DNA from: Burkholderiales bacterium
GTDB taxonomy: Bacteria > Pseudomonadota > Gammaproteobacteria > Burkholderiales > JAEUOS01
Assembly: GCA_016790695.1 (NCBI GenBank)
Contig: JAEUOS010000066.1
Coordinates: forward strand, 23,446 to 87,445
Reading direction: 5' to 3'
Length of the DNA stretch: 64,000 bases
Position 1 is the first letter of the stretch; the number at the start of each line of letters is the position of its first letter. Below, one piece after another: positions 5,132 to 10,994 of the stretch. The notes beneath the pieces were generated by a model, which saw only the letters and a list, made by a program, of their open reading frames with translations, had not been told where the DNA came from and ran no database searches. The translations under genes were made by a program, and so were the position numbers.

Positions 5132-5749
5132 TCATGCCAGCGCCGCGATGACCTCGTCGTCCTCGACCTGGGGAAAGTGCCGGTAGAACTGCCCGACCGC
5201 GTGGAAATCGGCCGGGGTCTCGAGGCAGACCAGCTCGTCGCACAGCGTGCGCACGCGGTCCGCGGTCTCGGGCGGCGCCACCGGCACGGCGCAGATCAGG
5301 CGCTGCGGCGACTTCTGGCGCAGCGCATGCAGCGCGGCGATCATGGTCGAGCCGGTCGCGAGCCCGTCGTCGACGACGATGACGATGCGTCCCGCGGGGT
5401 CGTGCGCGGTGCGGTGCAGGGTGTAGGCGCGGCGCCGCTCGCGCATGAGCGCCAGCTGCGCGGCCTTCTCGCGTTCGATGTAGGCATCCGAGGCCCCGGT
5501 CAGGCGCGCGCCCTCGCCCAGGAACGACCAGCCCGACTCGTCGATGGCGCCGATCGCGTACTCGGCATGGCCGGGCGCGCCGAGCTTGCGCACCAGGACG
5601 ACGTCGACCTCGCCGCCCAGGTCCGCGGCGATGATCTTCGCCATCGGCACCGCGCCGCGCGGGATGCCCAGGACCAGCGGGTTCCTGCCGCGCCACTGCG
5701 CGAGCGCCGCGGCCAGGCGCACTGCCGCGTCGTTGCGGTCCTCGAACAC
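5132..5749 (-). CDS. Phosphoribosyltransferase family protein
   Basis: GTG start at 5749 with GGAGG 6 nt upstream. PRPP-binding loop RIVIVVDDGLATGSTM. 205 aa. Confidence 0.85.
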   Translation of the reverse strand: MFEDRNDAAVRLAAALAQWRGRNPLVLGIPRGAVPMAKIIAADLGGEVDVVLVRKLGAPGHAEYAIGAIDESGWSFLGEGARLTGASDAYIEREKAAQLALMRERRRAYTLHRTAHDPAGRIVIVVDDGLATGSTMIAALHALRQKSPQRLICAVPVAPPETADRVRTLCDELVCLETPADFHAVGQFYRHFPQVEDDEVIAALA

Positions 5750-5770
5750 CGGATGCCTCCGCGAGCGCGG

Positions 5771-6019
5771 CTACGCGCCCAGCCGCGTCGCCAGATAGTC
5801 GACGAGCACGTCCAGGGTCGTGAGCTTGCGGTAGTCGGCCTCGGGGATGTCGACGCCGGTGCGTTCCTTGAGCGCGATCAGGAAGTTGAGCCAGTCCATC
5901 GAGTCGAGGTCGACCTGCTCGCGCAGCGTCCGGGCGCCCGCGAGCTGGTCGGGCTCGACTTCCGGGGCGATGGAGAGAAGCGTGGCGAGCACCGCTTCGC
6001 GCAGTTCAGTGCGGTTCAT
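5771..6019 (-). CDS. Stand-alone acyl carrier protein (phosphopantetheine-binding)
   Basis: 82-aa C-terminal part of ORF 5771..7180 starting MNRTELREAV. Carrier-protein serine motif QVDLDSMDWLNF. ATG 6019 overlaps the E2 stop (ATGA). Confidence 0.8.
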   Translation of the reverse strand: MNRTELREAVLATLLSIAPEVEPDQLAGARTLREQVDLDSMDWLNFLIALKERTGVDIPEADYRKLTTLDVLVDYLATRLGA

Positions 6020-7249: not shown

Positions 7250-8224
7250 CTACGACCTGCCGCAGGCGCGCCGCGCCGCCGCGACGATCGCGGCGACCTG
7301 CGGCAGCGCCGCGTCCTCGAGGTGCTTGGCGTAGGGAATCGGCACCTCCTCGCTGCACACCCGCAGCGGCGCCGCATCGAGGTCATAGAGCGCCTCCTCG
7401 GCGATGCGCGCGACGATCTCGCCGGCCAGGCTGCCGGTCTTCCAGCCTTCGTCGATCACCACCGCCCGGTGGGTCCGGCGCACCGAGGCCAGGATGGTCT
7501 CCAGGTCCAGCGGGCGCAGCACGCGCAGGTCGACGACCTCCGCGTCGATGCCGTCGGCGGCCAGCGCATCGGCCGCCTCGAGGGTCTTGGGCAGCGACCC
7601 GCCATGGGTGATCAGGCTGACGTCGGCGCCGCTGCGGCGCAGCGCCGCGCGCGCGATGTCGACCGGCGCATCGCCGGCCTCGCCCTCGAGGTTGTAGAGC
7701 TGCACGTGCTCGAAGATGATCACCGGGTCGGGATCGGCGAGCGCGGCGGCGAGCATGCCGCGCGCATCCGCGACGGTGGCCGGCGCGAGCACCCGGATGC
7801 CGGGCACGTGCGCGTACCAGTTCTCCAGGCTGTGCGAATGCTGCGCGGCCAGCTGGCGCCCCGCGCCGGTCGCCATGCGCACCACCAGGGGCACCGAGAA
7901 CTGGCCGCCCGACATGTGGCGCATCAGCGCGGCGCTGTTGACGATCTGGTCCATCGCCAGCAGGCTGAAGTTGACCGTCATCACCTCGACGATCGGGCGC
8001 ATGCCGCCGATCGCGGCGCCGACCCCGGCGCCGACGAAGCCGAGTTCGGACAGCGGCGTGTCGCGCACCCGCTCGGGACCGAACTCGTCGAGCAGGCCCT
8101 TGCTCACCGCGTAGGTGCCGCCGTAGCGCCCGACGTCCTCGCCCATGAGGAACACGCGCGGGTCGGCGCGCAGCGCCTCGCGCAGGGCTTCGCGCATCGC
8201 CTCGCGGTAACTCATCCTGCTCAT
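7250..8224 (-). CDS. 2-oxoacid (pyruvate/acetoin-type) dehydrogenase E1 beta subunit
   Basis: 324 aa starting [14 protein letters not shown]. Transketolase-like blocks [13 protein letters not shown] and DTPLSE. Start overlaps the E1 alpha stop (ATGA). Confidence 0.9.
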
Positions 8225-9219
8225 GCCGCGGCCCCCGGCGTGTGGACGTCGCGCGCGAGGTCGGCGACCGGCTCCAGGCGGCCGGCCTCGGCGAACGCGA
8301 CCGCCGCGTCGACCTCGGCCAGCGCGGCGCGGTCGATGGCGAGGAATTCCTCCTCGGTGAGCAGGCCCTGGGCCTTCAGGCGCGCCGAGAAGGTGTGGAT
8401 CGGCCCGCGCGCCTTCCATTCCTCGACCTCGGCCTTGCTGCGGTAGAGCTCGGCATCGAACATCGAGTGCGCGCGAAACCGGTAGGTGCGGAACTCGATG
8501 AACATCGGCCCGTCGGCGCGCACGCGCGCGACGGCCGCCGTCGCCGCCTCGTGCACGGCCACCACGTCCATGCCGTCGACGCGCATGGCGGGCATGCTGT
8601 ACGACGCGGCCTTGGCGCACAGGTCGGTCTGCGACTCGGAGCGCTCGAGCGCGGTGCCCATCGCGTAGCCGTTGTTCTCGCAGGCGAACAGCACGGGCAG
8701 CTTCCACAGTGCGGCCAGATTCATCGATTCGTGGAACGCGCCCTCGGCCATCGCGCCCTCGCCGAAGAAGCAGGCCGTCACGCGCCCGGCCTCCTGCATG
8801 CGCGCGGCCAGCGCGAGACCGACGGCCAGTGGCAGCCCGCCGCCGACGATGGCGTTGCCGCCGATCAGGCGCGTCGACGCGTCGAACAGGTGCATCGAGC
8901 CGCCGCGCCCGCGCGAGCAGCCTTCGACCTTGCCGTACATCTCGGCCATGATCGCGTTCATCGGGACGCCGCGCAGCAGCGCGTGGCCGTGCTCACGGTA
9001 GGTGGCGACGAGGTTGTCCTCGGGCGCGAGCGCGCGCACCGCGCCGGCGGCGACCGCCTCCTCGCCGATGTACAGGTGCAGGAAGCCGCGGATCCGGCCG
9101 GCGCCGTAGACCTCGGCGCACTTCTCCTCCATGCGCCGGATGCGCACCATGTCGGCGAGCATCGCGTGCGCGCGGTCGCGCGGCCACGGCACCGGGCCGG
9201 ACGGCGGCGGCGCGATCAT
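8221..9219 (-). CDS. 2-oxoacid (pyruvate/acetoin-type) dehydrogenase E1 alpha subunit
   Basis: 332 aa starting [13 protein letters not shown]-binding region [38 protein letters not shown]. Start overlaps the acyl-CoA synthetase stop (ATGA). Confidence 0.9.
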
Positions 9220-10994
9220 GCGCCGCCCTCCAGCGTCGAGAGGTCGCCCTCGGGCAGGCCGAGTTCGCGCGCCTTCAGCAGCCGGCGCATGATCTTGCCG
9301 CTGCGCGTGCGTGGCAGTCCGGCGACGATCTCGATCTCCTTCGGCGCGACGGCGGCGCCGAGGCGCTTGCGCGCATGCGCGAGCAGCGCCGTGCGCAGCG
9401 CCGCGTCGGCCGCAATGCCGGCCTTGAGCGAGACGAACGCCTTGACGACTTCGCCGACGACCGGGTCGGGCTTGCCGATCACACCGGCCTCGGCCACCGC
9501 CGGATGCTCCATGAGCGCGCTCTCGACCTCGAACGGGCCGATCAGGTGGCCGGCCGACTTGATCACGTCGTCGGCGCGGCCGACGAACCAGAAGTAGCCG
9601 TCGCCGTCGCGCCGGGCCAGGTCGCCGCTGAGGTACAGGTCGCCGGCGAAGCACTTGCGGTAGCGCTCGTCCTGGTCGAGGTAGCCGCGGAACATGCCGG
9701 GCCAGCCGGCGCGCAGCGCCAGCTCGCCCTCGGTGTCGGGGGTCTCGACCGGCAGCACGCGCCCGTCGGCATCGCGGCGCACGATCAGCGCCTCGGTGCC
9801 CGGCAGCGGCAGGCCCATCGATCCGGGCTTGATGTCCATCGCCGCGGTGTTGGCGATCATGATGCCGCCGGTCTCGGTCTGCCACCAGTTGTCGTGGATC
9901 GGCAGGCCGAGCACTTCCTGCCCCCACCAGACGGCCTCGGGGTTGAGCGGCTCGCCGACGCTGGCGACGAAGCGCAGGCGCGGATGGCGGCGCTGCCGCG
10001 CCAGTTCCGCGCCGGACTTCATCAGCATGCGGATCGCGGTCGGCGCCGTGTACCAGACGCTCACCGCCTGCTCCTCGAGGATGCGGTACCAGCGCTCGGC
10101 GTCGAAGTCGGCCTCGTCGATGATCGAGGTCACCCCGTGCAGCAGGGGCGCGATGATGCCGTAGGAGGTGCCGGTGACCCACCCGGGGTCGGCGGTGCAC
10201 CAGAACACGTCGTCGTCGTGCAGGTCCAGCGCGAACTTCCCGGTCGCGTAGTGCGTCAGGGCCGCGCCGTGCACGTGGATCGCGCCCTTGGGCGTGCCGG
10301 TCGTCCCGCTCGTGAAATGCAGGAGCGACCGGTCCTCGGAGGCCGTCGGGGCGCCGTCGAACTCGTCGCTCGCCGCCTCCATGAGCTGGGCGAAATCGCG
10401 GGTGCCGGGGAGCACGCCGCCGCTGCCGCCTTCGGCGACGACCACCACGTGCCGCAGCGAGGGCAGCCGCGGCAGGATCGGCGCGATCTTGCGGCGGAAC
10501 AGGCTCTCGGTGGTGAGCAGCACGCGGCCGCGCCCGAGTTCGACGCGGGTGCGGATCGGTTCCGGGCCGAACGCCGAGAACAGCGGCGTCACCGTCAGGC
10601 CGGCCTTGAGCCCGCCCAGGACGCCGAAGTAGAGCTCGGGGATCCGTCCCGCCAGCACGAACAGGCCGTCGCCCTTCCGAAGCCCGAGCCCGGCGAGCGC
10701 ATTCGCGAAGCGGTTGCTTGCGAGCCTGAGCTCGCGGAAGGTGATGTCGCGCGCCTCACCCTCGCGCGGCAGCCAGCGCAGGGCGGCGCGCGACGCGCGC
10801 GGCCCCGCCGCGTGGCGGTCGGCCGCGAGGCGCCCGATGTTCCAGTCCTCCGGGCCGTCGCCGAGGAGCTCGCGGCGCATCGCCGGCCATGCGAAGGCCG
10901 CGCGCGCCGCCGCATCGAGGTTCGGCGCCACGTGCGACTGCGACAACGCCTTGCGAATGATCTGCGGACGCACCTTCCACCCGTTGGTCGACAC
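9216..10994 (-). CDS. AMP-forming acyl/acetyl-CoA synthetase family protein
   Basis: 592-aa ORF. AMP-binding motif [14 protein letters not shown], plus [37 protein letters not shown]. The GTG start at 10994 has no clear SD, so the start is uncertain. Confidence 0.85.

Follow-up and report, generated by a model that had tools for sequence, protein, structure and literature searches.

A five-gene bacterial cassette linking pyruvate dehydrogenase subunits, an AcsA-type ligase and a dedicated acyl carrier protein

In a 64,000-nucleotide stretch of a Burkholderiales bacterium genome (contig JAEUOS010000066.1, positions 23,446 to 87,445; this whole stretch is called the window below), we analyzed a minus-strand gene group in which the genes for pyruvate dehydrogenase (PDH) subunits lie between those for an acetate-activating ligase and a small acyl carrier protein (ACP). 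The conserved unit within this group consists of five genes, not six, which encode AcsA, E1 alpha, E1 beta, E2 and the ACP, and the recurrence of this order is far beyond chance. To judge from the genomes and replicons that carry it, the five-gene cassette appears to be mobile and present in hundreds of bacterial species; no description of it was found in a full-text literature search. The function that we favor, with somewhat less than even confidence, is that of an accessory PDH of hypoxia and dormancy that passes acetyl groups to a private “acetyl carrier protein”, i.e., a protein-bound surrogate of coenzyme A (CoA).

Gene order, co-inheritance and spread

The window has a G+C content of ~72% and therefore contains abundant long spurious open reading frames (ORFs); real genes were picked by GC content at third codon positions (GC3) together with Pfam matches. 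All genes of the group lie on the minus strand. The first gene of the cassette, acsA (9216..10994, start codon uncertain within ~30 nt), encodes an AMP-forming acetate-CoA ligase of the Bacillus subtilis AcsA type. It is followed by pdhA (8221..9219) for the thiamine pyrophosphate (TPP)-binding E1 alpha subunit of PDH, by pdhB (7250..8224) for E1 beta, by the gene for the E2 dihydrolipoamide acetyltransferase (6016..7239), with lipoyl, E3-binding and catalytic domains, and by the gene for a dedicated ACP of 82 aa (5771..6019). Behind these lies a gene for a type I phosphoribosyltransferase (PRTase) of the TT1426 type (5132..5749). ATGA overlaps, read at 9216-9219, 8221-8224 and 6016-6019, couple pdhA to acsA, pdhB to pdhA and the ACP gene to that of E2, while E1 beta and E2 are spaced by 10 nt and the ACP and PRTase genes by 21 nt, with GGAGG inside the latter gap. 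The original prediction had described six minus-strand genes with these three overlaps and two gaps, and re-reading the positions bore this out in full. The domain content first given was likewise recovered with Pfam, i.e., AMP-binding and AMP-binding_C in the ligase, E1_dh in E1 alpha, Transket_pyr and Transketolase_C in E1 beta, Biotin_lipoyl, E3_binding and 2-oxoacid_dh in E2, PP-binding in the ACP and Pribosyltran in the PRTase.

Eighty related ACP loci were fetched, and the flanking ORFs of all of them were clustered. In every one of the 80 the ACP was a stand-alone protein preceded by E2, with the full order of acetyl-CoA synthetase (ACS, the ligase), E1 alpha, E1 beta and E2 wherever the contig was long enough, and five further genomes agreed. 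Within the order, ACP orthologues in other genomes (49-63% identity) always followed ACS-E1 alpha-E1 beta-E2. The E2 stop codon and the ACP start codon shared the 4-nt overlap in 39 of 89 loci, and overlap or a spacing of at most 20 nt was seen in 72 of the 89. No cluster of flanking ORFs occurred in more than ~9 of the 80 loci, so that a conserved sixth gene was not found; ketosynthase, thioesterase, phosphopantetheinyl transferase (PPTase) and E3 genes were not conserved in the flanks either. The PRTase gene lay near the cassette in five of the 80 loci, always upstream, often divergent and never downstream of the ACP. The six-gene order proposed at the outset is thus conserved for its first five members and not for the PRTase, which is an island neighbor outside the conserved cassette and its mechanism; in the window, the two are probably co-transcribed.

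For an order-level survey, an even sample of 201 genomes was searched for cassette-type ACS (E <= 1e-120) and for the ACP (E <= 1e-12). Each was present in 27 of the 201 genomes, and 25 genomes had both, on the same contig and 3-5 kb apart. Where only one of the two was present, the assembly was fragmentary (two genomes) or had masked bases (one), or the ACP was that of an ACP and GNAT gene pair (one). Well outside the Burkholderiales, where the original prediction had proposed to check for conservation, the cassette also extends into Alphaproteobacteria and Actinobacteria. Phylum-wide, the ACP was sporadic (15 of 401 genomes). When a collection of species-representative genomes was searched with the ACP alignment A1, at least 575 ACP stretches were confirmed, and a protein database held 3,774 ACP clusters at E <= 1e-5.

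Annotated copies of the cassette were located on plasmids or chromids of Burkholderia savannae, Cupriavidus, Sinorhizobium fredii, Leisingera and Rhodococcus qingshengii. The RefSeq labels in these hosts are generic (acsA, pdhA, E1 beta, “dihydrolipoamide acetyltransferase family protein” and “acyl carrier protein”). Among the matches listed there were further ones in Ralstonia, in Paraburkholderia phymatum and in an unannotated Photobacterium record. In Mycolicibacterium gilvum, a 251-aa protein under the label “acetyl-CoA synthetase” (P0215) combines a stretch of ACS (residues ~100-225) with one of the ACP (residues ~32-77). It is apparently the remnant of a deletion within the cassette, which would then once have been present in a mycobacterium.

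Properties of the encoded proteins

The E1 subunits were of the pyruvate type. E1 alpha scored 289 bits with PF00676 (E1_dh) and 436.8 bits with TIGR03182 (PDH_E1_alph_y; cutoff, 393.85), and E1 beta scored 397.7 bits with the PDH E1 beta model NF006667 (cutoff, 321), while transketolase models scored far under their cutoffs on both. In a plasmid of Leisingera methylohalidivorans (L121:7845-9842), one annotated gene of 1,998 nt covers both E1 alpha and E1 beta, a natural alpha-beta fusion. E2 stayed under every NCBIfam E2 equivalog cutoff (223 bits vs 445), and its nearest matches in the PDB were E2p proteins of mitochondrial-type PDH (8piu and 6ct0, E 2e-54). An acetoin dehydrogenase (AcoABC[L]) was rejected, as the acetoin E2 model NF011457 reached 68.3 bits (cutoff, 307) on the lipoyl part only and E1 alpha fits the PDH model. 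The complex had at first been called pyruvate/acetoin-type, and only the former half of that label stands.

The lipoyl lysine and the His-Arg pair of the DHR catalytic motif were conserved across cassette E2s. The lipoyl site reads DTSKA in the window, with a family signature of DT[SAT]KA in which the canonical aspartate of DKA is absent family-wide, and a family-specific DGHRGA block follows the catalytic motif in the E2 sequences scored. Among these, the catalytic motif of the window (DHRVSSG) was unique; nearly all relatives have DHR[VA]SDG, the conserved aspartate being lost in the lineage of the window, and three other cassette E2s read STG at this place. Judged by their motifs, the cassette enzymes look catalytically competent.

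No E3 gene is present at the locus, as originally noted, and every TIGR01350 match of the genome lay on another contig. Two of these, on contigs C226 and C62, were lpd genes above the cutoff, and two AceE-type PDH E1 genes are found elsewhere in the same genome. Given the two lpd genes and the E3-binding domain retained by E2, an E3-less operon is not anomalous; the absence itself had been observed correctly. Together with the two AceE-type E1 genes, these features indicate an accessory complex able to borrow E3.

The ligase had been predicted to be an AMP-forming acyl-CoA synthetase, an assignment that we can narrow to an acetate-CoA ligase of the AcsA type. It scored 860.7 bits with the acetate--CoA ligase equivalog NF003313 (PRK04319/AcsA type; cutoff, 729), and its nearest PDB match was a 572-aa AcsA (9g79/9g7f, E 6e-157). 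The A10 motif P[RK]TRSGKIMR, including its acetylatable lysine, was kept in 72 of 72 ACS sequences scored. The equivalents of R191, R584 and K609 of Salmonella enterica Acs were kept in the ligase and that of R194 was replaced by lysine; R191, R194 and R584 are residues which we take to contact the CoA nucleotide. Also present was the NWWQTETGG block, whose tryptophan presumably restricts the pocket to acetate. By these residues, the window ligase probably still binds CoA and, being AcsA-type by the NCBI equivalog with the CoA-contact arginines kept, it is not obviously an ACP-loading enzyme.

The predicted carrier protein with a DSM phosphopantetheine site proved to be real and strongly conserved, by Pfam match, alignment and modeled fold. 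It scored 27.8 bits with PF00550 (PP-binding; cutoff, 20.8) with the DSM serine present, and in alignment A1 the blocks QVDLDSMDWLN, which contains this residue (Ser40), and IPEADY were invariant. An AF2 model (pLDDT 92.8) had four helices with Ser40 at the N-terminus of helix II and, by Foldseek, superposed on the ACPs of fatty-acid synthesis (FAS) and of mitochondria with a TM score of 0.85-0.89 at 20-26% identity. All AcpP/ACP equivalog cutoffs of NCBIfam were missed (TIGR00517, 29.5 bits vs 70.45), which rules out membership of the housekeeping AcpP family of fatty-acid synthesis, and NCBIfam held no model specific to this ACP or this E2. The genome has one AcpS-type PPTase gene; near the cassette, no AcpS homologue was found in ~100 loci by a single-query tblastn, which is a weak test.

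A search of longer proteins revealed a sister family in which this type of ACP is fused to a GNAT acetyltransferase, with ~75 clusters of ~265-aa proteins (P0129-P0214, e.g., P0158). The GNAT half shared 40-47% identity with the C-terminal domain of proteins of ~900 aa that occur across the order, and its best structural matches were Escherichia coli PatZ, the GNAT domain of Streptomyces lividans PAT (including a complex with the C-terminal domain of Acs) and Mycobacterium tuberculosis Rv0998. In an AF2 model of a fusion protein (pLDDT 84, pTM 0.61), the inter-domain geometry was uncertain. Both forms of the ACP share the helix II and IPE[AS]DY surfaces and the phosphopantetheine serine. One genome of the order, G177, has ACP and GNAT as separate adjacent genes (contig C103; L141:8408-9233) in a dormancy-type island with genes for a ribosome hibernation factor, Hsp20, a nicotinate phosphoribosyltransferase (NAPRTase) and an orthologue of the window PRTase; in the genome G147, the fusion (C73:10785-11579; L118) is surrounded by Mrp antiporter genes, which are uninformative. 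A literature search did not find an ACP-type domain on a Pat GNAT. All partners of this type of ACP, i.e., E2, AcsA and the Pat-like GNAT, are thus enzymes that act on an acetyl-pantetheine thioester.

Promoter, neighborhood and comparison with known systems

Upstream of acsA, on the minus strand, we found an FNR/CRP-type box (TTGCGCAATATCAA, 11033..11046) that matches 8 of 10 positions of the model TTGAT-N4-ATCAA, and a -10-like TAGAGT (11006-11011). When the box was sought within 150 nt upstream in 62 loci, 29 loci had a match to 8 or more of the 10 positions and 14 a match to 9 or more, whereas dinucleotide shuffles predicted 1.5 and 0.1 loci, respectively. Since the 62 loci are related, these counts overstate independence; the spacers, however, differ between loci. 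From this promoter box, the cassette is predicted to be a low-oxygen operon of the FNR/CRP type.

The upstream neighbor on the same strand is ald (11078..12193), for alanine dehydrogenase (TIGR00518, 469.3 bits vs a cutoff of 391.85). Between ald and the cassette promoter lies a perfect 7-bp hairpin (GCGCCGC-AAAA-GCGGCGC, 11051..11068, minus strand), which has no T-run and was not called by a terminator scan. A perfect FNR palindrome (TTGACATCGGTCAA, 12240..12253) is located between ald and a divergent orphan groEL, a position which suggests that one FNR-type site may serve both genes. No other TTGA-N6-TCAA occurs in the 64-kb window, where 0.05 would be expected.

Across loci, the neighbors of the cassette included genes for Hsp20/alpha-crystallin, universal stress proteins (USP), CBS and BON proteins, Crp/Fnr regulators, PpsA, FtsH and Lon. 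In metagenomic Betaproteobacteria (L054, L062, L089, L074, L033 and others), it was flanked by genes for a LonB/LonC-like protease, a 2-oxoacid:ferredoxin oxidoreductase, a CBS-pair protein, a nitroreductase and a protein-L-isoaspartate methyltransferase (PCMT), which together make up a repair and anaerobiosis gene set. The neighbors in the window are ald, the orphan groEL and an AmmeMemoRadiSam system; Cpn60 and ald were each near ~6 of the 80 cassettes. By Pfam, neither a ketosynthase nor a thioesterase was seen among the scanned neighbors of the locus, in keeping with the original prediction, and genes for nonribosomal peptide synthetases (NRPS), polyketide synthases (PKS), ketosynthases (KS) or C-domains were found neither in the neighborhood in the window nor in the 80 related loci. 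Two megasynthase-like ORFs upstream (1,491 and 1,395 aa) are spurious high-GC read-throughs according to Pfam and GC3, and a biosynthetic gene cluster was rejected; the region really holds ald, groEL, an aldehyde dehydrogenase gene and other ordinary genes. By its gene content, the context of the cassette appears to be a low-oxygen/dormancy stress island and not a biosynthetic cluster.

The AmmeMemoRadiSam system of the window is complete and lies on the plus strand (2488-5078), convergent with the PRTase gene. Its B and A proteins are fused in a 500-aa ORF (TIGR04336 and TIGR04335), and the gene for the radical SAM partner (TIGR04337, 621 bits) comes next; the trio recurs beside the cassette in another locus (L097). 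Also on the plus strand, 5 kb from the cassette, is an operon (15552-20698) for an IclR regulator, a 711-aa ADP-forming acyl-CoA synthetase, an NMO-family flavoenzyme and a TctC/Bug binding protein. The ADP-forming enzyme could offer another way to gain ATP from acetyl-CoA where ackA is lacking: no ackA was found in the genome of the window, and its sole Pta-like match was under the cutoff. A general role of the cassette as a substitute for Pta-AckA was rejected, since ackA was not anticorrelated with it (19 of 25 cassette carriers vs 135 of 201 genomes overall).

The trailing gene is a type I phosphoribosyltransferase, as predicted (PF00156, 82.6 bits); its nearest solved relative, and the only close one, is the uncharacterized Thermus thermophilus protein TT1426 (PDB 1wd5, E 5e-45). 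In G177, an orthologue 65% identical to the window protein directly follows the gene for NAPRTase (L141:2169-4398). NAPRTase is also encoded in the plasmid stress island of S. fredii (L138:14524-15897), and the two occurrences together hint at a link of the PRTase to NAD salvage in dormancy.

One of the closest known systems to the cassette PDH is the heterotetrameric-E1 PDH of Alphaproteobacteria, mitochondria and Gram-positive bacteria (PdhA, PdhB, E2p and Lpd), which it resembles in its E1 models, its E2 domains and the E2p-type structural match. It differs in having no E3 in the operon, DT[SAT]KA instead of DKA and the DGHRGA block, as well as in its constant company of an AcsA-type ligase and a private ACP, in its predicted FNR box, in its location on plasmids and in stress islands, and in being accessory to two AceE-type E1 enzymes. 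At PA3415-PA3417 of Pseudomonas aeruginosa, accessory E1 alpha, E1 beta and E2 genes without E3 likewise stand beside a gene for an amino-acid dehydrogenase (ldh, PA3418), a likeness drawn from the description of the genes. The label given to that cluster is still no more than “predicted PDH or branched-chain dehydrogenase”; ACP has no occurrence in the paper, and acsA is not listed in the cluster. With low-oxygen and dormancy islands such as the lxa locus of Burkholderia cenocepacia (PMC3721108) and the mycobacterial DosR-type regulons, the cassette loci have Hsp20, USP, CBS, BON, Crp/Fnr, PRTase, ald and FNR-type boxes in common; what sets the cassette apart is that it moves as a unit of its own, inserted into such islands in several phyla. 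We rejected membership of the lxa locus itself, as the paper on that locus has no mention of either a PDH or an ACP (PMC3721108).

Possible fates of the acetyl group

We propose that the locus may be a self-contained, horizontally mobile module of five genes under low-oxygen or dormancy control. Its E1 alpha-beta and E2 would form an accessory PDH that borrows the Lpd (E3) of the cell, the housekeeping AcpS would convert the ACP to its holo form, and acetyl-dihydrolipoyl-E2, formed from pyruvate, would pass the acetyl group to the phosphopantetheine thiol of the ACP. The resulting acetyl-S-ACP could be discharged by AcsA, possibly in an ATP-forming reaction (acetyl-thioester + AMP + PPi -> acetate + ATP), or it could serve as a private acetyl donor. 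In this scheme, we infer phosphopantetheinylation, acetyl transfer to the ACP, the loading enzyme and the direction of flux. As the ACP is conserved, obligatorily linked to E1/E2 and the ligase, and coupled to E2, its direct role in the handling of C2 units is the most economical reading. Strict co-inheritance, the E2-ACP coupling, the lack of a conserved consumer gene, the acetyl-thioester partners and the precedent described below argue for an acetyl-ACP module, and the analysis suggests that acetyl groups are given to a protein-bound arm besides, or in place of, free CoA.

2-Oxoacid dehydrogenase complexes are textbook CoA-dependent machines. For transfer from E2 to an ACP, we know of no biochemical precedent other than the Qnc/Nap glycolyl-ACP systems, in which the ACP, rather than CoA, reportedly receives the acyl group formed on the lipoyl arm. 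The Qnc/Nap/Din systems (QncN/QncL/QncM; NapB/NapD/NapC; DinS/U/T) combine a TPP enzyme, a lipoyl-E2-like protein and a stand-alone ACP, as does the cassette. The Qnc/Nap systems have split transketolase-like E1 proteins that act on ketose phosphates, and they lie inside NRPS clusters, whereas the cassette has a true PDH-type E1, no NRPS or PKS nearby, an obligatory acetate-CoA ligase and a stress rather than a secondary-metabolism context. For these glycolyl-ACP systems of tetrahydroisoquinoline antibiotics, a passage of PMC7570522 cites, as its reference 33, Peng et al. (2012, PNAS).

Several observations weigh against direct transfer of acetyl to the ACP. The ligase passes the acetate-CoA ligase equivalog and keeps the R191 and R584 equivalents, and nothing in the E2 sequence shows that CoA use has been lost; free CoA may thus simply be the acceptor for both enzymes. 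No ACS-ACP fusion was present among the longer proteins searched with the ACP. Apparent E2-ACP fusions (P0126, P0172 and P0199) were frameshift artefacts, in which the E2 match ends 50-100 residues early and continues into an out-of-frame Arg/Pro-rich linker, so that there is no Rosetta-stone support for a partnership of E2 and ACP. Since the ACP and GNAT pair of G177 exists without the cassette, this type of ACP does not strictly need E2 or the cassette ACS. Finally, the ackA counts given above leave an ATP-yielding relay unsupported by gene content. This last point bears on the boldest form of our proposal, in which the ACP replaces CoA in a CoA-independent relay from pyruvate to acetate that conserves the thioester energy as ATP (from AMP and PPi), the GNAT-fused form feeds the Pat acetyltransferase in cis, and the acetyl pool is insulated from CoA. 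We regard this form as possible but doubtful.

The rival that survives best, which we nevertheless consider rather unlikely, is an ordinary CoA-dependent accessory PDH plus AcsA, which would make acetyl-CoA from pyruvate and acetate in low oxygen; the ACP, co-expressed with them, would serve a downstream process that consumes acetyl-CoA (e.g., storage-lipid or fatty-acid synthesis in dormancy) without being acylated directly by either enzyme. The RefSeq annotation reads the genes exactly so, and the scores of the ligase and the E1 subunits with the NCBI acetate-CoA ligase and PDH models, the retained CoA-contact arginines of Acs and the fold of the ACP, which is nearest to FAS-type ACPs, all fit this explanation. 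Yet neither ketosynthase, acyltransferase nor other users of ACP were conserved near the cassette in the 80 loci, the ACP falls far under the AcpP cutoff, and near-perfect co-inheritance, together with the overlap of the E2 stop and ACP start codons, is hard to square with distant partners.

A second rival, quite improbable in our view, holds that the ACP serves in regulation or docking instead of carrying flux: it would bind the CoA/carrier site of AcsA or the E2 core, report acetyl status by its acylation and, in the GNAT fusions, recruit the Pat-type enzyme to acetyl-CoA synthetases. That an ACP can have a structural or regulatory role is known from the ACP of mitochondria. Pat-type GNATs, whose known substrates are AMP-forming acetyl-CoA synthetases, are fused or adjacent to the sister ACPs, and the A10 lysine present in every cassette ACS scored and the surfaces conserved in both ACP forms also speak for regulation. 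Control of AcsA by GNATs is known from B. subtilis AcsA-AcuA, Pat/PatZ, S. lividans PatA and M. tuberculosis Rv0998, and the cassette ligase, nearest to the 572-aa AcsA and with its A10 lysine, resembles the targets of these systems; it differs from them in that a GNAT is not part of the cassette and was not conserved next to it in the 80 loci. Further, the invariant phosphopantetheine serine fits thioester carriage, and the uncertain geometry of the ACP-GNAT model does not help the recruitment scheme.

It is more improbable still that AcsA itself loads the carrier, by transfer from acetyl-AMP to holo-ACP, with the PDH merely supplying acetyl-CoA or NADH. ANL-family enzymes often partner with carrier proteins and some load them, both ACP architectures are linked to Acs-type enzymes, and ACS and ACP co-occur strictly. 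Set against this, the ACP gene is always beside that of E2 and coupled to it, with acsA three genes away, the ligase keeps the CoA-nucleotide contacts and its equivalog score, and the search of longer proteins gave no fusion of the two. That the ACP is an octanoyl donor for lipoylation of the unusual lipoyl domain (DT[SAT]KA, without the canonical aspartate family-wide), as octanoyl-ACP is the natural donor for LipB, is scarcely credible, because an acetate-type ligase (NWWQTETGG, equivalog) offers no route to octanoyl-ACP and no lipB, lipA or FAS genes were linked to the cassette in the 80 loci.

A widespread PDH under predicted low-oxygen control, located on mobile stress islands of Proteobacteria and Actinobacteria and never without its own ACP and acetate-activating enzyme, implies an unrecognized handling of acetyl groups in hypoxia and dormancy. 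Should the ACP indeed replace CoA, transfer from E2 to ACP would extend from a rare curiosity of antibiotic pathways to central metabolism, and the ACP-fused Pat acetyltransferases would be explained. The cassette would then also offer a new target or marker of persistence physiology in genera including Burkholderia, Cupriavidus, Rhodococcus and the rhizobia.

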